Virus record (IMG/VR): IMGVR_UViG_2593339199_000002 | Coordinates: 1-64,000 of that record | Source of the DNA: a virus | Taxonomy: Duplodnaviria > Caudoviricetes | DNA length: 64,000 nucleotides | Strand: one strand, 5' to 3' | In this document: positions 36,043 to 52,860 of the stretch, in pieces | Layout: every line of letters starts with the position of its first letter | Numbering within the stretch: position 1 is the stretch's first letter | Notes under the pieces: model-generated | Database searches by the model: none | What the model was told of the DNA's origin: nothing | Seen by the model: only the letters and a program-made list of their open reading frames with translations | Made by a program: the position numbers and the translations under genes

Positions 36043-36602
36043 TCATTGATGCATGGGGAGGGCACTGTCTCTCCCCCACCCTTCGGGTATGCATACAGCT
36101 GATAAGTCATCGCTGCACCTGCGTCACGCATGAGCCTCGCCAAGAGCATACAACCTCACCTCTGCCCCATCGGCATCCCACATGCCCATGCCTGTCCCAT
36201 GACCATACCCATGCGAACACGATGCGGCCACCTCCACCCTGTCAACTTGGGGTAACTCAGCAATCTTTGCCCAGCGACATGACACCATGCCCAGAGGGGG
36301 CCACAGCAGGTTCGTTCCCGCTTCATGTGTCCAGCTCACCGAGCATCCTGGGGTTGAAAATTGGAAATTCGCATCCCGCTTCTGCATCCGGATGATCGTG
36401 CTTCTTTATGGCCATGATGCTGATATGATCATGCCTTCGGATAGGTGCGATGAGACACGCTAGAGGGGCGCCTGACGGCGCTGTTCATCTCGATGTATCA
36501 TTCGTGCATCAAGAAGCTATTGACGCTATACGTGGCACAGGAGAGCGGCTGACGCCGCATTTCATCTTGAGGCTAAACTACGTGCAAGGAGAGATGTTTA
36601 TC

Positions 36603-36983: not shown

Positions 36984-38585
36984 TATCTATGCTCTAGTAT
37001 CTATGCTCTCTATATGCTTCATGCGTATAGGGAGCTTCTTTCCTTTCCCGCTCCCCCGCTTGCCCCTGCTGTGATGGGCGTCTGACGCCGCTCTTCATCA
37101 TGATCGATCAAAATCGTCCATCCTTCCCCCTTCCTATTTCCTCTGAATGGAGGCTTGTTATGAAACCGAATCAACCTGATGCGCTGGCTTTGTTCAGCAG
37201 CATCGTGCGTTTAATGCAGATGAGCGAAACGAATGAGGTGCCTATCGCTACATGCCATGCTATGCATTTGGAGTTTACGAATGACCGTATGTGCTATGAC
37301 GAAGCAGTTGCTCTTATGGATATGCTTGTTGCTCGTAACTATCTATCTGTGCGTGTTGGGCAATGGGGAGTCAAGATGTTGTCTCCTACTTCTTATGGAC
37401 ATGAGCGATTAGCTTTGTATTCCTCTCCCGCTTCCCCGCCGCCCCTTCGGTCTTGATATGCCTGACGGCATGATGCATTCCGATGAATAATCCCTACGTG
37501 GAGGTATGCTTGATGAAACTTGAAAATATGCAGTCCCATGCGGATGCCCTTAATAATACGATTGCAAGCACATGCGACTATTGCGGTGCATGTGATACGT
37601 GTGCTGAATACATCTATCTTACGCAAGACATCGCTTTTGAGAAGCAGGTGCAGCGTGCTCCTTCTCATGTTCGCCTCGATCTCCGTCGGTCATATCATGA
37701 ATCAGATTGGGTTCTTCTATAAGTGCCTGACGGCATGATTCATTGTGATGTAATGTGCTACAATGTGCACATGGGCATATCTGATTATTAAGTTTCATCC
37801 GTATTGCTTATTGCCTGATTATCATCCAGTACATAATGTGAGGTGATTGGCATGGAGATTAATATGTATTCTGTTTCCGCCGATATGGATGCATCTGATT
37901 TGCATACCGCTGCAATGCCGTATGGTCAAGCGAAGTTTATGTACGATCGCTGGAAGGCTGATCCGGAAGTGTTCAACGTTATTATGTATCGGCATGAAGG
38001 CGACAAGAAGATCATGCTTGGACCAAGTGAGGTTTAATTGTGGAGCTCGTTTCTGAATACTGTCATGTGCGTCAATCGTTTATGCTGCATGATATCGAGG
38101 TGCGTGTTGGTGACTATGTAGGTTTTACCTATACTTCTCCTACTTCCTCTACTCGGATATTAGGCTATGTTCATGGCTTTGATCTTTCCGCCGGCCTGAT
38201 GTTTGTGATCATCTCTGGGAAGCATGCTGTGTATGGGTATTCCTTGGACCAGGTGAAGGATCTTTACTTTCCAGAGGAGGACGAATAGTTGGGTAGGCAT
38301 CAAATGCGTAAGAAACTCCGTCATGGCGGAGAGTTATCCATTTTCTCATGGATCGGCCTGCTGGTTTTTGCATGCATCGCTTTATCGTTTCATGCAACGC
38401 GCCTCGTTTTTATCAGCTTATTCGGAAGCATATTGATTTGCACGCTACTAGAGAAGCTGTATAAACGTGCGTTTCGCAAGGATCCCCCTCAAGCTCTCTT
38501 CTATACGTTATTGGTTTTATGCGCGGTTGGACTTGCGATTGCGTATATGGTGATTACGGATATGGATTCCTTGTTTTTGTAGCTG

Positions 38586-40925: not shown

Positions 40926-41402
40926 ATGGCAGATTGGTATTTGGAAGATATTCATGGAGTACGACATAAAGCAGTCATCGCAGCTATGCAGCCTAATCAA
41001 GCCGCTAAAGCAAGATGGACGAAGGGCCTCAGCTGGCACAGGGAGCTCAAGGCAACGGACCGAGAAACATTCGTCCTTATTGACGATGCTACTGGCACCG
41101 CTCAAGGTGCCATTTCCCTGTCCGATGCTGGGGATCACGTCTACATACATTTGCTTGAGAATGCGCCACATAATCGCTCTGTTGCAAATCCAAGGCAATT
41201 TGTGAATGTATCACGGATCCTTATTGGTTTTGCCGGAGCAATCAGTAACTCCTTCGGATACGAGGGCTTCTTGGCTTTGACACCAAAGTCGTCGTTGGAG
41301 GATTATTATGCCCGCCTGTTCAAGGCTTTCCCGCTTCCCGATCGTAAGATGGGCATACATGGTGTTGTCTCAAATCACTGGTACAGGGTATACTATACGT
41401 AG
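40926..41402 (+). CDS. GNAT-family acetyltransferase-like protein
   Basis: VYIHLLENAPHN...V...LI.FA...S...GY.GFL.L.PK..L..YY pattern. Confidence 0.65.
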   Translation: MADWYLEDIHGVRHKAVIAAMQPNQAAKARWTKGLSWHRELKATDRETFVLIDDATGTAQGAISLSDAGDHVYIHLLENAPHNRSVANPRQFVNVSRILIGFAGAISNSFGYEGFLALTPKSSLEDYYARLFKAFPLPDRKMGIHGVVSNHWYRVYYT

Positions 41403-41416
41403 AAGGGCGTGATCTT

Positions 41417-41662
41417 ATGGCGCGTAAAATATTGCACGGTGTCCAAAATGCGAAAGGACAACCTATTCGAGTAACGGTTGGAACTGCTCGTGTAAAAGAG
41501 ACAATCGTTGATCTTGAAAGGCTTGAGATGATTGACCCTCGTGGTATCCATACGGATCCAAGTGGTCGCGATGGCCATACGCCTGAATCTCGGGCAGCTA
41601 TGACCGAGTTCATCCGTAAATGTAAATCCGGCGAAATTGAAATGAAACCAATCGAACTATAG
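41417..41662 (+). CDS. Small protein cotranscribed with the GNAT gene
   Basis: ORF followed by a terminator at 41673-41703. Confidence 0.6.
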   Translation: MARKILHGVQNAKGQPIRVTVGTARVKETIVDLERLEMIDPRGIHTDPSGRDGHTPESRAAMTEFIRKCKSGEIEMKPIEL

Positions 41663-41758
41663 TATTTCCTTGAAGCACTCACATTATGTGGGTGCTTTTT
41701 TTGTTGTCCAAAATGCCTCCATCGGGCAGGCAGCTGAGACTTAATACCACTGGAGGTA

Positions 41759-42034
41759 TTGATGATGATTACGAAACATAAAATGCCCATCGCCGTTATT
41801 GGCCTGCTTATCCTATTCTCCGCGGTCATCTGGCGCAACGTGCAGTCTGATTTCAACAATGTCACCTGGAAGCAATACATAGTCGGATCCGGCGACACCA
41901 TGTGGAGCATTGCGCAAACGTCAACGGTGGATACAAATACGCGCGACATTGTTGCGGTCATGCAGGACTATAACGAGATGCATAACGTTAATCTTCATCC
42001 CGGTGATGTAATCTTGGTCCCGATGTCCAAATAA
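41759..42034 (+). CDS. TM + LysM protein (YneA-like division inhibitor)
   Basis: N-terminal TM; YIVGSGDTMWSIA...LHPGDVILVP. Confidence 0.75.
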   Translation: MMMITKHKMPIAVIGLLILFSAVIWRNVQSDFNNVTWKQYIVGSGDTMWSIAQTSTVDTNTRDIVAVMQDYNEMHNVNLHPGDVILVPMSK

Positions 42035-42072
42035 CCTGACGGCTCGATTATTTACGATATTAATTTCGGAGG

Positions 42073-42519
42073 TTGATATTCATGCATATTAAATTGACAT
42101 GTTGTTTCGAATGCGGCCCGACCAGGCTGATCCCGCCCCATCTTACTAATAACGAGATCAATTGGATTCGGTGTGCCGGCTGCCGCGAGAAAAATCGGGC
42201 GTTCTATCGCGACTTCTGGAGCGAATATGTTGATGCCATGAATAATGGAGATCGTTTAGTTGATGACGGTCGTATTGTTGCTCGCATCAATGGTGAGCAT
42301 TACGTGATCGGATTCGAAGATGAAAAAGGCTATTTCCGCGGTCACGGCGGTAACACTTTCGTCCTTCGGTTTACGAGCGGTCCGCACGCCGGACAGACCT
42401 ATCGCACGACGAATCTCTGGGCTCAAGGCAAGATCAGCCATGGGTTCGAGAAGATCCTCACAGATAATGCTGTCTTCGTGCCGCAGGTCTTTGCCTCACT
42501 TCTTGAGGCGCTGGCCTGA
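42073..42519 (+). CDS. Hypothetical phage protein
   Basis: ORF with GGAGG RBS; CxxC pairs. Confidence 0.6.
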   Translation: MIFMHIKLTCCFECGPTRLIPPHLTNNEINWIRCAGCREKNRAFYRDFWSEYVDAMNNGDRLVDDGRIVARINGEHYVIGFEDEKGYFRGHGGNTFVLRFTSGPHAGQTYRTTNLWAQGKISHGFEKILTDNAVFVPQVFASLLEALA

Positions 42520-42544
42520 CGGCCTATTTCATTTTAACATGCGG

Positions 42545-42621
42545 GCCCCTTCCCGCACTGTAGCATGGTAGTGCCATGCCTGATGATGGCTTCTCTAAGC
42601 CGAAACAGTAATGCAAGGGGC
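42545..42621 (+). ncRNA. Type III hammerhead ribozyme
   Basis: ACTGTA | GCATGG-tagtg-CCATGC | CTGATGA | t-GGCTT-ctct-AAGCC | GAA | ACAGT; complete core with three paired stems. Confidence 0.9.
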
Positions 42622-42629
42622 TGGTCAAT

Positions 42630-42857
42630 ATAGATAAAAAGATCAAAAAGACAAAGCTGTCCCTGGACGATCGCCTGTACATTCTTCAGACGAATCTCCT
42701 CCCGCCTGAGTTACGAATCAAGCTACACCAGGCTGATACCTTGTATTTTCAAAATCAGGACGAACGTGCTGCCGCTCTCATAGCAGAGATCGAGGAATCC
42801 TGTCGTGAGAAGGGCATCACTTTGCATCGCCCCCCATTCTTTCCACTTGGAGACTAA
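42630..42857 (+). CDS. Unannotated 75-aa ORF with probable ATA start
   Basis: AAGGGG RBS at 42615-42620; open frame (I/M)DKKIKKTKLSLDDRLYIL...FFPLGD* ending just before the next gene. Confidence 0.55.
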   Translation: MDKKIKKTKLSLDDRLYILQTNLLPPELRIKLHQADTLYFQNQDERAAALIAEIEESCREKGITLHRPPFFPLGD

Positions 42858-42862
42858 TACAT

Positions 42863-43391
42863 ATGCGTGAAATTATTTTGGTTCGTGTAGTTAATGAGGG
42901 TAAACCTCGTCCGCGTTTAGCTTTGCCTGCTCTCCCTCCTATTCAACCGTTGAAGCTTCTTCCCCGCAATCCGCAGTCTAAACTGTTTGCGTACCAACCA
43001 AGCGACAACTCTCATATTGGCCAACTAATCGATCTGAAAGGATGATTCTCATGATACAACGATTCTTTATTCGTCCGGCCGGCGCCGACTTCGCGATCAT
43101 TGTGGTCGTGGACGGCGCGGAGCAGGAAGTCGAGCGCGGCGGCAAACCTCTGATCAGAGGCAAGTTCCTCCACTATGTGAAGGATCGGAATGCCCTTATT
43201 GAGAAAGTGGGGGCTGTTGCATCATGAAGTGGAAATGGCGCATTGGGATCGGGCTTCTACTCCTGTTCACGATGCGCTTCTGGTTGCATTGGATACTCTT
43301 GCTGGGCCTGATCTTCATGATCGGCTGCATTGTCATCAAAGTTCTTGGCGATGCCCACGAACTGCTCGGTTTTATCAGGCGCAAGCGATGA
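42863..43391 (+). other. Three small coupled CDSs (42863-43045, 43042-43227, 43224-43391 membrane peptide)
   Basis: Overlapping ATGA stop/start junctions. Confidence 0.5.
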
Positions 43392-43818
43392 CGCTTCTCC
43401 CTTGCCCCCTCCAATGACCATACTATGAGTCCCCCCGAAGGGGGCAATGCCGTCCGCTAAATGGACAGACTCCGTGCAACCTATGTAAGTATGTATCATG
43501 GAAATGATCGACCAATCAGTGTTACTTGATTGACTGTCATGCGGCTTTATTCCATAGTGGAACATGCATCTTGTCATGGATCATGTTTCTTTGGGCTCCT
43601 GCCCTTTTTCCAATTCTGGAATCTTGTTGCATGATTCCTTGATTCTTGGTGGTCTGACATGATGCTTGATTAAAAGTGCCACTATATATATTACATAGTG
43701 GCAAACTTGGGGTATTTGAACCCCAGTTTTCTTCCAATTGATGATTTCACATAATTGTCACATGTTGTTCGTATTTGTTCTGGCTGACGCCAAGGTTCAT
43801 TTTGGAGGTGGTTATCCC

Positions 43819-44352
43819 ATGTTCGTCGTACAATATCGCGATCATACGTCCTTCGATGAACTCCGTGTGGATCTGGCGCAGACTGAATCAGATTTGAACA
43901 GCTTTTGGCACCATGACGCATCGGTAATCTCAATTCAGCATGTCTGGGAGATTCCAGATGATGCGCAGTTATTTCGCCTGATTGTTGCAGGCAGCCGTGA
44001 CTTCAACGACTATCCCCTACTCCGCTCCAAGCTGGACTTCTTTCTCCAGCATCAGCCGTATACGATCATTGTGTCCGGCGCGGCCCGCGGTGCTGATTCG
44101 CTCGGTGAAGATTATGCTAAAGAACGCGGCTTGCCGATCGACCAGTTCCCTGCTGACTGGAATCCCCTCCACTTAAAAGGCAAGTTGGATCGCAGTGCAG
44201 GGTATCGTCGGAACGAACAGATGGCGAAAGTTTCACAAGGGTGCGTTTGCTTCTGGGACGGAACTTCACGCGGCACCGAGCATATGATTAATCTCGCCAA
44301 CAAATACAAACTGCAGACCCGCGTGGTCAAATATGAGGAGGAGCTTGTTTGA
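43819..44352 (+). CDS. SLOG-family (DUF2493/YspA-like) protein
   Basis: LIVAGSRDFNDY, SGAARGAD, AGYRRNEQM and FWDGTSRGT. Confidence 0.85.
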   Translation: MFVVQYRDHTSFDELRVDLAQTESDLNSFWHHDASVISIQHVWEIPDDAQLFRLIVAGSRDFNDYPLLRSKLDFFLQHQPYTIIVSGAARGADSLGEDYAKERGLPIDQFPADWNPLHLKGKLDRSAGYRRNEQMAKVSQGCVCFWDGTSRGTEHMINLANKYKLQTRVVKYEEELV

Positions 44353-44798
44353 AAGAGGTAGCGATCTATACTGATGGTGCGTGCAGCGGCAATCCCGGTC
44401 CTGGTGGCTGGGGTGCCGTTTTAATTTATGGCGATATTATCGGTAAATTTAACGGCTGCGAGGCATATTCCACGAATAATCGCATGGAGCTGATCGCCGT
44501 GATCCAAGCCCTTCGGTTACTGAATGAGCCCTGCCGCGTCCGGATTTACAGCGACTCTGCCTTCATCGTAAATTGTTTCAAGCACAAATGGCACGAGCAT
44601 TGGGTGGCCCACAACTGGCGGAACACGCAAAAGCGCAAGGTTGAGCACCGCGAGCTATGGGAGCAGTTGCTCAACCTGAACAAGCTGCATCAAGTCACCT
44701 ATCATAAAGTCGACCGGGATGCCGGCGTGCAGCATAATGTAACCGCTGATCAGCTTGCACGAGAAGCCATCATTATGTATCGCAAGACAATTGCTTAA
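44349..44798 (+). CDS. rnhA: Ribonuclease HI
   Basis: YTDGACSGNPGPGGW, TNNRMEL, YSDS and N..AD.LA. Confidence 0.92.
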   Translation: MKEVAIYTDGACSGNPGPGGWGAVLIYGDIIGKFNGCEAYSTNNRMELIAVIQALRLLNEPCRVRIYSDSAFIVNCFKHKWHEHWVAHNWRNTQKRKVEHRELWEQLLNLNKLHQVTYHKVDRDAGVQHNVTADQLAREAIIMYRKTIA

Positions 44799-44892: not shown

Positions 44893-45666
44893 TTAACGAA
44901 GCAGGGACAGAACGCCTTGTGGTGCAGAGTTTGCTTGAGCCAGCATCGATTGGGAAGCTTGAAGAAGAATGTTGTTCTTCGTCAGGTTGACCATCTCGCT
45001 CGCCATGTCCGTATCGCGGATGCGGGACTCGGAAGCCGTCAGGTTCTCGGTCGTCGTGCCCAAGTTGTTGGACGTGTACTCGAGACGGTTTTGAACCGCA
45101 CCCAGCTTGCCACGCTCCGTAGCAACGGCTTTGATCCCATCATTTACTTCAGCCAGCGTAGTCGTGTCATCAAGGCCAATAAAACTAGCCGTGACAATTT
45201 GACCAATATTGATGAGAGTTCCTTTATCGTCAGTAGCGATAGCGACACCGGTTGTGTTGTTGATGTTGATTCCGTTGAACGTGGTGTTAGACATGATGTT
45301 GTCGATTTGACCACCCAGCGCTTTCATCTCTTCGCCGATGTTGGCTTTGTCTTCAGTCGAATACGTGCCGTTAGCATCTTGAACTTTCAGTTCTTTCATT
45401 CGGCTCAGCATTGCGGATACTTCGTTCAGCGCACCCTCAGCCGTTTGAACATAGGAGATGCCGTCTTGCGTATTGCGTTGAGCTTGCTGAAGTCCACGGA
45501 TTTGTCCGCGCATGTTTTCGGAGATCGAAAGACCTGCAGCGTCGTCGGCAGCGCGGTTAATGCGGAGACCCGAAGAAAGCTTCTCCATATTCTTGCCAGC
45601 AGCCGTGTTATTCAGGGCCATGTTGCGGTGCGTGTTGAGCGCGCTAATATTGTGGTTGATAATCAT
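44893..45666 (-). CDS. hag: Flagellin (short, D0/D1 only)
   Basis: MIINHNISAL, KLSSGLRINRAADDAAGL, RIRDTDMASEM and QGVLSLLR. Confidence 0.95.
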   Translation of the reverse strand: MIINHNISALNTHRNMALNNTAAGKNMEKLSSGLRINRAADDAAGLSISENMRGQIRGLQQAQRNTQDGISYVQTAEGALNEVSAMLSRMKELKVQDANGTYSTEDKANIGEEMKALGGQIDNIMSNTTFNGININNTTGVAIATDDKGTLINIGQIVTASFIGLDDTTTLAEVNDGIKAVATERGKLGAVQNRLEYTSNNLGTTTENLTASESRIRDTDMASEMVNLTKNNILLQASQSMLAQANSAPQGVLSLLR

Positions 45667-45725
45667 TTGTATTACCTCCGTGTGTGTTAGGTAGTAGATG
45701 ATTCCTTTCATCTACTTGGATTGAT

Positions 45726-47543: not shown

Positions 47544-48152
47544 ATGCGGAAGCAGATTTTCGGTGTTTTTTGGGCGGCGGCCATGATGGCGCCTGGTATC
47601 ACCATGAATTTCGTACCAAAACTAGCGGCGGCCGGCATCTTCGCCGCGGCCATCGCGCTTAACGCCTACATTTTAGGGAACATGACGTGGCAAAAGCATG
47701 CCATGACCGATAAATTGACGGGTCTGCGTAACAGGGCAGCACTCGATCAACAGCTGAAGGTATATCGGAAGCGCCAGGTGTCGGTGCTCATGATCGACAT
47801 CGATAATTTCAAGTCCATCAACGATTCCTTCGGACACGCGATAGGGGATGGGGTCCTTTATGATGTGGCCAATACGATGATGAGCCAAATTCGAGGTGCT
47901 GACATCTACCGCTATGGGGGAGAGGAGTTCACGATCATCTTGCCTGGATTGCAGATACGAGAGAGCTATGCGATCGCAGAGCGCCTTCGGAAAGCCGTAG
48001 AGCAACACGTTCACGTTTATGGAAGGCCCGTGACGATTTCAATCGGCGTAGCCAGCTGCTCAGATATCAAGCTGGCGATGAAGCAGGCGGATGAATGCCT
48101 GTACGAATCCAAGCAACGAGGGAGGAATGCCACAACTGCTTGTGCATGTTGA
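47544..48152 (+). CDS. Membrane-anchored diguanylate cyclase
   Basis: TDKLTGLRNR, DIDNFKSINDSFGH..GD, RYGGEEF and K..GRN. Confidence 0.92.
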   Translation: MRKQIFGVFWAAAMMAPGITMNFVPKLAAAGIFAAAIALNAYILGNMTWQKHAMTDKLTGLRNRAALDQQLKVYRKRQVSVLMIDIDNFKSINDSFGHAIGDGVLYDVANTMMSQIRGADIYRYGGEEFTIILPGLQIRESYAIAERLRKAVEQHVHVYGRPVTISIGVASCSDIKLAMKQADECLYESKQRGRNATTACAC

Positions 48153-48236
48153 GCCTGACGGCTCGTTTCATATTAGAATCTGACCGCCATCGTGCGGTCT
48201 TTTTTTATTCCATTGAAGGGAGGAAGCCGCGTGGCC

Positions 48237-48740: not shown

Positions 48741-49479
48741 ATCGCATAGGCCCGATCATGGATCGGATTATCGATAGCACGCTGCTGCTGGTCCTTAGCC
48801 TTGTTATCTTGACCGTAGCTTCTTTCGCACTCAGCATATACGCACTCATTCTGTTCATCGCGCTGATCGTGCTTTTTGCATGCTATGTGCGATGGTCTGT
48901 ACAAACCGAACCAGTTGAGGAGGATCACCAACATGACGATGGTCACAACAACATGCAGCCTTTGTCGCACCGACGTCACGCTTGATTTTGAAAACCTGTC
49001 GCATGACGAGGCCGTCGAAAGACTTCGCAAGCTCGATAAAAAGGCGATGGAATGCCCAGGCATGCATGTCGAGATGGGCGGCTGGTACAAGCGCTGGAAG
49101 TTGGATGAGGCGCTTCGCGCAGCCTATCCGGATCATTACACCAATGGAGCCTGACGGCTCGTTTCATGCTGATCTACATATTAGAGAGGAGATCTCCATC
49201 ATGCATATAGCTTCTGTCGTTGCAAACCACCTCATCAATGCCGGCTCTAAAGCCGAGATTCAAAGCACACTTCAATCTTGCCGTTCGCATACCGAGCAGC
49301 ACGATGCATTGAAAATGGCTGCGGATCATATTCTGCTGGCCGTTGAATCGAATATCGCACAAAAGAATCATCAAGTCGCAATCTGGGAGCTCTCGAAGCT
49401 GGCGATCGTGGAAGACGAACTGCTGAAGGCGGAGCGTCGCATGAATCACGTATTATCGCTCACAGGAGCACGCCTCTAA
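48737..49479 (+). other. Three small CDSs (48737-48985 membrane, 48933-49154 Cys-containing, 49201-49479)
   Basis: ORFs with plausible RBSs. Confidence 0.5.
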
Positions 49480-49648
49480 TGCTTTGGCTTGGTGCATTCA
49501 TGATCATCGTTCTATCAGGGCAGGTGTGGTGCCTGCCCCTATTGTTCATTTTCTTTTTTATTGTAATGGCTAACAAGAAGATCAATTAGGCGCCTGACGG
49601 CGCGATTCATCTTAGCTAATATCCAATTTCCCGAGGAGGAAACTAACC

Positions 49649-50918: not shown

Positions 50919-52814
50919 ATGATACAGGTACGTATGCAGTACAACAATGTTTACTTGAAGATACTTGATGGACCGGAGACATTTGACCATACGCTTGAAA
51001 AAGTGCGTTACATCCGGAACCGTGGGTTTAACATGGAAACAGGTGAATGGATGTTTGATCGTGAATATATCGGGGATTTACTTGCTTTATTCGATAATCA
51101 AATTACCTGGATGACACCGCTTCATGAAATTGTCGCAGGCGTCAATTTGAATCATGAGATCGTCAACCAACACATTCAATGGGAATCCGAAGGCGAGTTC
51201 AAGAACTTCTTGTTGCCGCTGTATGCGTATCAAAAAGTCGGGGCCAATTTCCTCATTGACCGTGGATGTGCAGCTGTGTTCGATGGCTGCGGGTTGGGCA
51301 AAACTCCTCAGCTGATTGGAGCATGTGAAAAGCTTCATGAGCAGGGAAGGGCCCAAAAGATGCTTATTGTCACACTCAGTTCCCTCAAACGACAGTGGGC
51401 AAAGGAAATCGAGAAATTCTCCGGGAAGACGGCGATCGCCGTTTCAGGTACGCCGGCTAAGCGCGCATCTCTTATCAAAGGATTCGCTCAGCGCAAGGAC
51501 ATTCAATACATGGTGATCAATTATGAGATCCTTCGGAATGATACCCTCCGAGAATTGATTAAGAATATACCGTTCGATGTGGTAGCGCTCGATGAAGCAC
51601 AGAAGATAAAGAATGGCGTGCGCGACACCTCTTTGAATATGGAGCCGAGCCAGATTGCTGCGGCGGCCTATGAGCTTAAACACATCAAATATCGTTTTGT
51701 CGCGACGGCGACCCCGCTTCAAGGCAAGGCTGAAGAGATCTTTAGCATCTTTTACTTTCTGAATGAAGAAATTCTTGGGCCATGGAATTATTTCCGTGAG
51801 CGCTACTGTAAATACAGCACGCGATATGGCATCACGGGGTACATTAATTTGGGCGAGCTGTATTACCGAATCGCACCATTCTTCATCAGGCGGACAAAGG
51901 ATATGCCAGAGATTCAACAGCAGCTTCCGCAAGTCCAGCATTCCCATGTCTTCCTTGAAATGACGGATGCACAAGAAAAGCTGCATGATTATCTGATCGA
52001 AAAGCTTACGGACATTAAAGAGCAGGCCAGGAGTATCACGGATTACAAGTTCATCAATGGGCAATCCATGTCCCCTCAAGAGGCAAAGGAATACTACGAT
52101 GCCTTGGCGCAAGGCTATCAGAGCTTTCTACTCAGCACCTGCGACAGTCCGGAGCTGCTGCTGATGTCCAAGACCCCGATGGCCGAGAAGATACTGAAAG
52201 AAGTCCAGCTCAGCGAGAAGGATCTGAAATCACCGAAGATCGATCAGTTCAAGGAGTTCTTCAGCAGCATGCTATATGATGAGCCAAACTCCAAGGTCGT
52301 TATCTTTTCCCGCTTCGAACGGATGGTGGAGCTGTTGTACCGTGAGCTCAACAAGGATTCCCGCGGCCGACCACTCGATAATCCGATCGCAGTCGCTTAT
52401 CATGGACAATTGACCGAAGGCGCCAAGGAATACGCTAAGGAACAATTCCTTCACAATCCAAATATTAAGGCCATTATCTGTACCGATGCAGGATCAACGG
52501 GACTAAACCTTCAGGTGGCGAACTACATGGTCCACATCGATCTGCCTTGGGATCCGACACTGTTGGAACAGCGCAATGGCCGCATTGACCGGACAGGTAA
52601 CGCCTTCGCCAATGTGACCATCTACTATTACGCCATGGAGAACAGCTTCGACGAGCATCTGCTGGAGATTCTGGACCGCAAGTCCGATCTCGCGAACCAG
52701 GTTCTCACCGGTGGTGCTGACAACCGCAGCCGTGAGAGGGATGTCAACAAGCTGGCGATGGATCGCCTCCTTCGGAAACGAAACAAGCAAACGAATAATG
52801 AGAATGTGGGGTAG
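50919..52814 (+). CDS. SNF2-family helicase/translocase
   Basis: GLGKT, DEAQ, TATP, GLNLQ and QRNGRIDR. Confidence 0.92.
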   Translation: MIQVRMQYNNVYLKILDGPETFDHTLEKVRYIRNRGFNMETGEWMFDREYIGDLLALFDNQITWMTPLHEIVAGVNLNHEIVNQHIQWESEGEFKNFLLPLYAYQKVGANFLIDRGCAAVFDGCGLGKTPQLIGACEKLHEQGRAQKMLIVTLSSLKRQWAKEIEKFSGKTAIAVSGTPAKRASLIKGFAQRKDIQYMVINYEILRNDTLRELIKNIPFDVVALDEAQKIKNGVRDTSLNMEPSQIAAAAYELKHIKYRFVATATPLQGKAEEIFSIFYFLNEEILGPWNYFRERYCKYSTRYGITGYINLGELYYRIAPFFIRRTKDMPEIQQQLPQVQHSHVFLEMTDAQEKLHDYLIEKLTDIKEQARSITDYKFINGQSMSPQEAKEYYDALAQGYQSFLLSTCDSPELLLMSKTPMAEKILKEVQLSEKDLKSPKIDQFKEFFSSMLYDEPNSKVVIFSRFERMVELLYRELNKDSRGRPLDNPIAVAYHGQLTEGAKEYAKEQFLHNPNIKAIICTDAGSTGLNLQVANYMVHIDLPWDPTLLEQRNGRIDRTGNAFANVTIYYYAMENSFDEHLLEILDRKSDLANQVLTGGADNRSRERDVNKLAMDRLLRKRNKQTNNENVG

Positions 52815-52860
52815 GCCTGACGGCCTGCCTCTTTTTACTTTATGGGAAAGGGCGGGAGAA

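Follow-up and report, generated by a model that had tools for sequence, protein, structure and literature searches.

A type III hammerhead motif beside the ribosome-binding site of a small conserved gene in a provirus

The hammerhead motif and its relatives

The stretch of DNA analysed here, referred to as the window, comprises the first 64 kb (64,000 nucleotides, nt) of IMGVR_UViG_2593339199_000002, a record of 99,904 base pairs (bp) in the IMG/VR class provirus. Between about 36 and 44 kb, small open reading frames (ORFs) form a co-oriented array on the + strand, and a 110-nt spacer between an ORF of 148 amino acids (aa) (42073-42519) and the next open frame houses the type III hammerhead ribozyme motif that is the subject of this report (Table 1). 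The initial annotation, made from the letters alone, described a full type III hammerhead core in this spacer and proposed that it hides the Shine-Dalgarno (SD) sequence of an unannotated 75-codon ORF with an ATA start. All of its coordinates were correct, and the extra U at 42587 was the only feature that it missed.

Every invariant base of the hammerhead core is present in the window element. The helices consist of 6-7 bp (stem I), 5 bp (stem II) and 5 bp (stem III), with stems I and II closed by loops. Stem II does not follow A9 directly; the pair G42588-C42601 (G10.1-C11.1) is kept and U42587 is inserted before it. On the 5' side, 8 nt lie between the TTCAT of an upstream hairpin motif (42528-32) and an accessory GC hairpin, and 12 nt between TTCAT and the anti-SD helix. 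On the 3' side, AAUGC separates stem III, which ends at 42609, from the SD strand AAGGGGC, and a further 8 nt lead from there to AUA 42630. GCCCCUU at 42545-51 pairs with AAGGGGC at 42615-21 and thereby extends stem III in register across a symmetric 5x5 internal loop. This helix and the accessory hairpin are mutually exclusive, and the alternative GCGGG/CCCGC fold of the 5' piece that had been suggested was indeed predicted at the given position. The RNAfold minimum free energy structure of 42541-42625 was the hammerhead junction together with the SD/anti-SD extension, at -35.6 kcal/mol (z -2.4; 8 of 200 shuffles folded at least as well).

Table 1. Positions of the features discussed, in window numbering unless another sequence is named
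Feature	Position	Strand	Details
Type III hammerhead ribozyme	42557..42609	+	core, three helices, GUA site
Stem III	42557-61 with 42605-09	+	ACUGUA 42557-62, CAGU 42606-09; open stem
Cleavage triplet GUA	42560-42562	+	predicted cut between A42562 and G42563
Stem I	42563-68 with 42574-79	+	GCAUGG-UAGUG-CCAUGC; loop UAGUG
Core strand CUGAUGA	42580-42586	+	C3-U4-G5-A6-N7-G8-A9
Extra U	42587	+	between A9 and G10.1
Stem II	42588-92 with 42597-42601	+	GGCUU-CUCU-AAGCC; loop CUCU
GAAA	42602-42605	+	G12-A13-A14, then A15.1-U16.1 pair (A42605 with U42561)
Accessory GC hairpin GCGGG-CCCCUU-CCCGC	42541..42556	+	directly 5' of stem III
Anti-SD GCCCCUU	42545..42551	+	pairs with 42615-42621
Shine-Dalgarno AAGGGG(C)	42615..42621	+	AAGGGG ends 9 nt before ATA 42630
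Uncalled 75-codon ORF	42630..42857	+	ATA 42630 to TAA 42855-57
Upstream gene	42073..42519	+	148-aa ORF from TTG 42073; probably 145 aa from ATG 42082
Dispersed motif copy	42513..42532	+	hairpin GGCC-TGAC-GGCC, 3 nt (UAU), TTCAT 42528-32
Dispersed motif copies	36469-36488, 37724-37743, 42513-42532, 48152-48171, 49148-49167, 49591-49610, 52814-52833	+	
Further dispersed motif copies with 10-mer	37460, 42034, 58389, G000 89624		
Flagellin gene	44893-45711	-	within predicted provirus
Type I pair example	L003:4593-4619 and L003:4461-4487	+ and -	

The bare core (CTGATGA, 8-38 nt, GAAA) was not significant by itself, with 2 matches against 1.93 expected. A full descriptor, which combined the core with stems I, II and III and a UH site, matched once in both strands of the 99,904-bp record. 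Across 200 dinucleotide shuffles of the record, the loose form of this descriptor matched 4 times in total and the strict form, with stems of at least 5, 4 and 4 bp, not at all.

A 27-letter pattern taken from the core and stem II led to one IMG/VR contig, L001 (136 kb), where the hammerhead lies between homologues of the same two genes (upstream protein 65% and downstream ORF 40% identical). Compared with the window, L001 has a GUC site, a compensatory stem I change from U-A to G-C, a further stem I change from C-G to U-G, and a compensatory change of the outer stem III pair from A-U to G-C. A second contig, L121 (206 kb), was reached through the family of the downstream ORF. Its hammerhead stands right after a homologue of the LysM gene of the window, lacks the inserted nucleotide and scored 33.9 bits with the covariance model R1 described below. 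Hence two related phages carry the hammerhead in the same gene neighbourhood, with compensatory changes. A scan for more members of this phage clade with a conserved downstream 58-aa protein returned only the two known contigs.

For the wider class, a degenerate pattern that still required one nucleotide inserted after A9 was used, and it matched at least 81 metagenome contigs, 25 viral contigs and 11 bacterial genome contigs. By the strict descriptor, 132 pattern instances comprised 58 of type I, 28 of type III and 46 that were unclassified, many of these with a single stem mismatch; the type III instances came down to 26 distinct sequences. The insertion is common to all sequences fetched in this way because the pattern demanded it. 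Twenty-two of the 26 were aligned (alignment A3), with the window and L001 left out for independence, L109 for its long loop I insert and L117 for its doubtful assignment. In A3, 93.1% of the cells form standard pairs, compared with 66.3% after shuffling and 36-47% with slid partners, and 15 of 20 pairs show double-sided changes; the covariation score was 0.703 against 0.198 for shuffled alignments, and 0 of 500 shuffles reached it, figures to be read with the fact that the pattern had fixed the core and part of stem II and that the descriptor had selected for paired stems I and III. A 4-bp pseudoknot between loops I and II also covaries in A3, with UGCU/AGCA alternating with UCCU/AGGA.

The model R1, built from A3 and therefore with the window left out, scored the window element at 45.3 bits (E 6.2e-11), a score to which only stems I and III contribute independently, and the L001 element at 48.3 bits. 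These were the only matches at E<=10 in 65,757 bases, one of them in the window, and each of the two records searched whole contained exactly one hammerhead. The ribozyme thus joins the intergenic hammerheads already known from phages (Perreault 2011) and falls into a sub-class whose core carries one inserted nucleotide; this class may already be represented in Dataset S1 of PMC3088659. The metagenome matches belonged mostly to a type I family (L003-L083) that shares the inserted U and whose stem III is minimal (GAAAC-AU-GU); two copies of it often stood on opposite strands, 50-1200 nt apart (Table 1).

Members of the type III class share one order of parts: a GC hairpin, stem III, GUH, stem I, CUGAUGA (often with one extra nucleotide), stem II, GAAAC, stem III and, 0-60 nt beyond the 3' strand of stem III, an SD with a start codon. 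An SD and a start codon (at least 35 codons) were found within 70 nt after GAAAC in 22 of the 26 loci, the finder returning none for L091, L108, L111 and L118. Most members have a counterpart of the accessory GC hairpin, which in L001 reads GCGGC/GCCGC. The 45 nt before stem III were more stable than the background of the same locus, with ranks <=0.05 in 11 and <=0.10 in 17 of 26 loci (median 0.063). Hairpins upstream and SDs with starts downstream across the loci suggest a recurring module of hairpin, hammerhead and ribosome-binding site. Such a layout may represent a self-processing intercistronic insulator that sometimes doubles as a cleavage-licensed ribosome-binding site.

Variants of this layout were seen at several loci. 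In L098 (9426-9484, - strand) the stretch of about 45 nt upstream holds a perfect intrinsic terminator hairpin whose U-tract is the 5' strand of stem III, which would confine the hammerhead to RNA that has read through; the next gene has its SD, GAGGAG, within the 3' strand of stem III. Five prophage loci carry an AGGAGG-like SD in loop II of the ribozyme (L095:277-336, L097:5583-5641, L106:243-301(-), L112:4852-4910 and L115:2042-2100(-)), with ATG or GTG 2-3 nt after stem III; two of these contigs are titled Caulobacter. With the SD in loop II and the start right after stem III, the ribozyme itself would be the ribosome-binding site.

The downstream gene and the pairing of its Shine-Dalgarno sequence

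The frame behind the hammerhead is open from 42612. A word-based search of a collection of 5.8 billion proteins with the 75-codon ORF found it absent, so gene callers had missed it, and tblastn of the ORF against GenBank phages gave no match. A HMMER profile built from the window and L001 proteins matched 52 cluster representatives at E<=1e-3, of which 22 were at <=1e-10. Family members are mostly 55-90 aa long and share the motif LDDRxYxLQ..LP.DL..AD..Y.Q...E.C, and no Pfam match was found for the family. The window ORF keeps 28 residues of invariant columns with the L001 homologue (alignment A1) and the 6 invariant columns of a 21-sequence alignment (A4). Since the family is conserved over 52 representatives, the ORF is a real small-protein gene, as the initial annotation had held.

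The start of this gene is probably ATA 42630, judging from its sequence context. Its first 37 codons include no ATG, GTG or TTG in frame, and the ATA is the only start candidate of the ORF with an SD. Over 42400-42900 the same letters, ATA included, stand in a contig of an independent assembly (213,532 bp, depth 202, possibly of the same sample); hence the codon is no assembly slip. The L001 homologue starts with ATG after GGAGG, and most homologues start 1-4 residues before LDDR, an alignment that favours CTG 42657, itself without an SD. The ATA start proposed earlier is thus a putative one, the only SD-backed candidate and with confirmed letters, and the Met of the homologues aligns nearer CTG 42657. 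The hammerhead of L121 is followed by a different gene, for a 72-aa membrane protein (L121:563-600 region), and the start region of that gene reads GGAGG, 8 nt, ATA GAT; its only canonical start, TTG 567, overlaps the SD. This second case is a hint that the module of this lineage may include a weak AUA start, and two cases prove nothing. The L121 stretch AAUCAUAGAUAUAAAC resembles AAUAUAGAUAAAAAG of the window.

The claimed helix between anti-SD and SD is real and is the strongest such duplex in the window. Between the SD and the last 30 nt before the cleavage site the computed duplex energy was -13.8 kcal/mol, which 0 of 9082 other 30-nt windows of the + strand matched. With the hammerhead helices enforced, the masked fold had -36.2 kcal/mol and the best SD-free fold, which contains the upstream hairpin, -28.6 kcal/mol, so that masking is favoured by 7.6 kcal/mol before cleavage. 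After cleavage the net binding of the two fragments was -8.2 kcal/mol relative to refolding alone, corresponding to a calculated dissociation constant in the micromolar range, and cleavage should therefore shift the balance to a free SD. The predicted probability that the SD is unpaired, P(unpaired), rose from 0.16 in the precursor to 0.59 in the 3' product. With more upstream context, the predicted fold paired the SD with the GGCC motif and disrupted stem III.

The closest relative, L001, showed no masking, with P(unpaired) of 0.64 before and 0.62 after cleavage and a duplex rank of 0.153. Strong SD complementarity (rank <=0.05) was found in 5 of 22 loci, with a binomial p of 0.004 that overstates the case because the 22 loci include close pairs. 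In L121 the anti-SD lies in the upstream hairpin (rank 0.010); in L086, L102 and L098 stem III uses the SD itself as its 3' strand; and in L084 and L103 CUCCUU stands just 5' of stem III. In an ensemble test of SD accessibility, mononucleotide-shuffled 5' fragments were nearly as effective as the natural fragment in masking the G-rich SD of the window (0.07 ± 0.10 compared with 0.02). Over 20 loci the mean was 0.33 in the precursor and 0.52 in the product (p 0.009), compared with 0.38 with shuffled 5' fragments (p 0.60). Since natural and shuffled fragments behaved alike, the ensemble test indicates no specific masking. This test mis-called the starts of L001 and L058, and the duplex-rank test was run in its place.

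Gene neighbourhood and the dispersed hairpin motif

The upstream gene is probably read from ATG 42082, which is preceded by GGAGG and gives a protein of 145 aa that is 100% identical to P0002. This protein is rich in Cys, with CxxC...CxxC close to the N terminus, and it matched neither a Pfam nor a PHROG family. As a query it returned the same IMG/VR contig only, and 3 proteins in the large protein collection; the only relatives that bear a name are hypothetical proteins of 95 aa from the Bacillus cereus group. A blastn search of 41000-44500 against GenBank phages gave one irrelevant 53-nt match. A weak consensus scan of 41500-43500 predicted no sigma-70-like promoter or terminator on the + strand from the upstream gene to the ORF. 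The flagellin gene of the window is 82-86% identical to its best matches, of which the named ones are Paenibacillus flagellins, suggesting a Paenibacillus-like host. By mapping, the independent 213-kb contig ends near this flagellin gene.

The stop codon of the upstream gene, TGA 42517-19, falls within the loop of a hairpin motif that recurs in the element. NGCC-TGAC-GGCN followed by 3 nt and TTCAT occurred 8 times where 1.88 matches were expected, a count that none of 100 shuffles reached. The sequence GGCCTATTTCAT taken as a repeat was weak (10 matches, 5.6 expected), and the looser hairpin pattern is more informative. The motif is specific to this element and heads many gene units, usually 30-45 nt before an SD and ATG; by reading of the matches, eleven + strand copies stand just ahead of an SD and start codon. 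The outer stem pair of the hairpin covaries. The motif could be an element-specific promoter or RNA-processing signal. Should transcripts start at it, what the hammerhead cuts off would be a leader of about 35 nt, and no cistrons would be separated.

Interpretation and comparison with known systems

Taken together, we consider it likely that 42557-42609 is a genuine type III hammerhead of a widespread phage and prophage class, serving chiefly in RNA processing. The ribozyme would be transcribed along with the upstream gene as part of the + strand array of the Paenibacillus provirus, and would cut its own RNA after A42562 in the cell. Hammerhead self-cleavage yields 2',3'-cyclic phosphate and 5'-OH ends, and the 5'-OH mRNA end put forward by the initial annotation follows from this established chemistry. 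The upstream RNA would thus end in the hairpin 42541-56 with a 2',3'-cyclic phosphate, and the downstream mRNA would carry a 5'-OH on its first nucleotide, exactly where stem I begins and 52 nt ahead of the SD. Since such a cut would leave structured ends on both sides, its main job would be intercistronic (or leader) RNA processing. The mRNA of the small gene would be uncoupled from the upstream RNA, the structured ends of both products would presumably protect them from exonucleases, and translation or stability of the mRNA may change. The accessory hairpin of this phage has, in addition, a loop complementary to the SD, and in uncut RNA stem III would be lengthened by the anti-SD/SD helix. 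After the cut this helix would join separate fragments that are weakly held, and it should therefore fall apart.

Several observations weigh against this reading. No hammerhead was found in the window by a scan with Rfam at gathering scores, nor at E<=10 on a 261-nt slice, and RF00008 alone had no match on the whole record; at gathering score, Rfam reported 0 of 16 related loci. The Infernal search that had been proposed as a check was therefore divided, the Rfam models giving no match and R1 giving its score, and the training set of R1 had been fetched by a pattern from the core and stem II of the window itself. The loops UAGUG and CUCU cannot form the Watson-Crick pseudoknot between loops I and II of the relatives, so that fast cleavage at cellular Mg2+ is not assured, and the site is GUA in the window and GUC in L001 and all 22 sequences of A3.

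The silence of Rfam was taken as a limit of the model, because RF00008, with a gathering threshold of 48.5 bits below which the window element falls, scored the insertion-free relative L121 at 42.7 bits (E 1.8e-8). This comparison points to the 1-nt insertion as the reason why Rfam misses the window copy, and the L121 score ties the hammerhead of this lineage to the curated family. The analysis also exposes a blind spot of Rfam, whose curated type III model misses many phage hammerheads with one nucleotide inserted after A9. GUA sites occur in natural hammerheads and, according to the data drawn from PMC1636495, cleave somewhat more slowly than GUC after purification. A chance or fossil look-alike that no longer cleaves, and is merely a structured spacer or terminator region, would agree with the absence of Rfam matches, the insertion of U42587 in the core, GUA in place of GUC and the lack of an obvious loop-loop contact. 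We regard it as very improbable, given no strict descriptor match in 200 shuffles, an intact set of invariant core bases, the same position in L001 with compensatory changes, the R1 match at E 6e-11 and the tolerance for the insertion described in PMC3705267. As that source describes it, the CChMVd (+) hammerhead tolerates one more nucleotide between A9 and G10.1, and trans-cleavage was 3-4-fold faster when this nucleotide was a U. Hence the full type III hammerhead first described from the letters was borne out by the descriptor, the covariation, R1 and the RF00008 score of L121.

It had further been claimed that cleavage releases the anti-SD and switches translation on. Were the ribozyme mainly such an ON-gate, which is compatible with processing, the cut would free the SD, the 5' piece would refold into 42541-56 and ribosomes would load at ATA 42630. 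The computed energetics speak for it, namely the duplex of -13.8 kcal/mol unmatched in the background, the stability of the masked over the SD-free fold, the net -8.2 kcal/mol after cleavage and the rise in P(unpaired), and so do the parallels in L121, L086, L102, L098, L084 and L103. An ATA start codon, however, would give very low translation output regardless of the SD, the closest relative L001 is unmasked, shuffled 5' fragments mask almost as well, 17 of the 22 loci show no enrichment of complementarity, and the interrupted 13-bp helix may dissociate slowly. Engineered Escherichia coli switches in which the SD lies in an extended hammerhead stem and is freed by cleavage, as described in PMC7445771, lend the idea some precedent. 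On balance, cleavage-gated translation through unmasking of the SD appears plausible from the modelled energies and is held only tentatively, as a possibility on the lower side of even. The additional idea of a timer is speculation, and nothing in the analysis speaks for it.

The same start codon raises a different possibility, that the ribozyme is real and the ORF is decaying (ATG to ATA), so that the protein is lost, the SD complementarity is without function and the ribozyme serves the genes from 42863 onward. The first 37 codons without a canonical start would fit this, as would the Met starts of the L001 homologue and of the homologues aligned in A4; moreover, 42630 is the sole clean SD-plus-ATA candidate in the whole record, suggesting that ATA starts are no habit of the element. 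We nevertheless consider decay unlikely. All 75 codons are intact, the conserved residues of A1 and A4 are kept, the 9-nt spacing from SD to ATA is ideal, and the different gene of L121 also has its ATA GAT 8 nt after GGAGG, which hints at a conserved feature and not a recent accident.

Processing by a genuine hammerhead thus remains the reading that we prefer, and within it a natural ribozyme-licensed ribosome-binding site in a subset of loci (the window, L121, L086/L102, L098 and L084/L103), coupled to a conserved weak AUA start in the window and L121, is conceivable and rather doubtful. If it were true, translation downstream would be licensed only on processed mRNA, the element would be the first example from nature of the masked ribosome-binding site known from engineered hammerhead switches, and an orphan class of bacterial and phage ribozymes would gain a concrete function. 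A search of the literature for a natural hammerhead that masks an SD returned engineered devices and reviews only. At about 120 nt the locus is a compact, testable case, in which an upstream hairpin and a ribozyme precede an SD that pairs with the fragment cut away and a small gene that is conserved.

Thousands of hammerheads are known in bacteria and phages, and their roles in bacteria were called "largely elusive" in a passage of a 2019 review (PMC6765202). Hammerheads of prophages lie beside genes, and a role in cutting long phage transcripts down to gene-length mRNAs was proposed for them (PMC3088659), and the corresponding passage of PMC6765202 adds that processing could give transcripts of differing stability or translation efficiency. 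The hairpin, hammerhead and ribosome-binding site layout fits both proposals as given there. With the RF00008 prophage and phage hammerheads of PMC3088659, as far as that text describes them, the window element shares the catalytic core, the three-helix junction, the open stem III, the intergenic position between co-oriented phage genes and the proposed role in transcript processing. It differs from RF00008 hammerheads in the extra U, the GUA site and the lack of a covarying loop pseudoknot, and from those portrayed in that part of PMC3088659 in a stem III lengthened by a helix in which the SD of the downstream gene lies. Neither 'Shine-Dalgarno' nor 'ribosome binding' occurs in the main text of PMC3088659.

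One extra nucleotide between A9 and G10.1 is also found in the CChMVd (+) hammerhead (De la Pena & Flores 2001, as summarised in part in PMC3705267), which is a viroid ribozyme of rolling-circle replication, whereas the window ribozyme would act in the mRNA of a double-stranded DNA phage. Like glmS, as outlined in the relevant portion of PMC6765202, the window element is a self-cleaving ribozyme in a bacterial 5' leader whose 5'-OH end may alter the fate of the downstream mRNA; glmS requires GlcN6P and lowers expression by degradation, whereas no cofactor is implied for the window element and its predicted effect, if any, is upward. The E. coli switches, in the designs taken from PMC7445771, likewise place the SD in a helix that prolongs a hammerhead stem and is severed by cleavage, but they are man-made type I ribozymes that hold the SD in a lengthened stem I and are controlled by a ligand through an aptamer. 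The window element is natural and of type III, places the SD in a stem III extension across an internal loop, and has no visible ligand sensor. Earlier hammerhead switch designs from the Hartig lab and from Ogawa and Maeda reportedly mask the ribosome-binding site as well. RiboJ is a synthetic insulator derived from a plant satellite RNA, in which the hammerhead removes variable upstream RNA and leaves a structured 5' end before the ribosome-binding site. The window ribozyme resembles it in its position before a ribosome-binding site, and differs in being a natural phage element with an added upstream hairpin.

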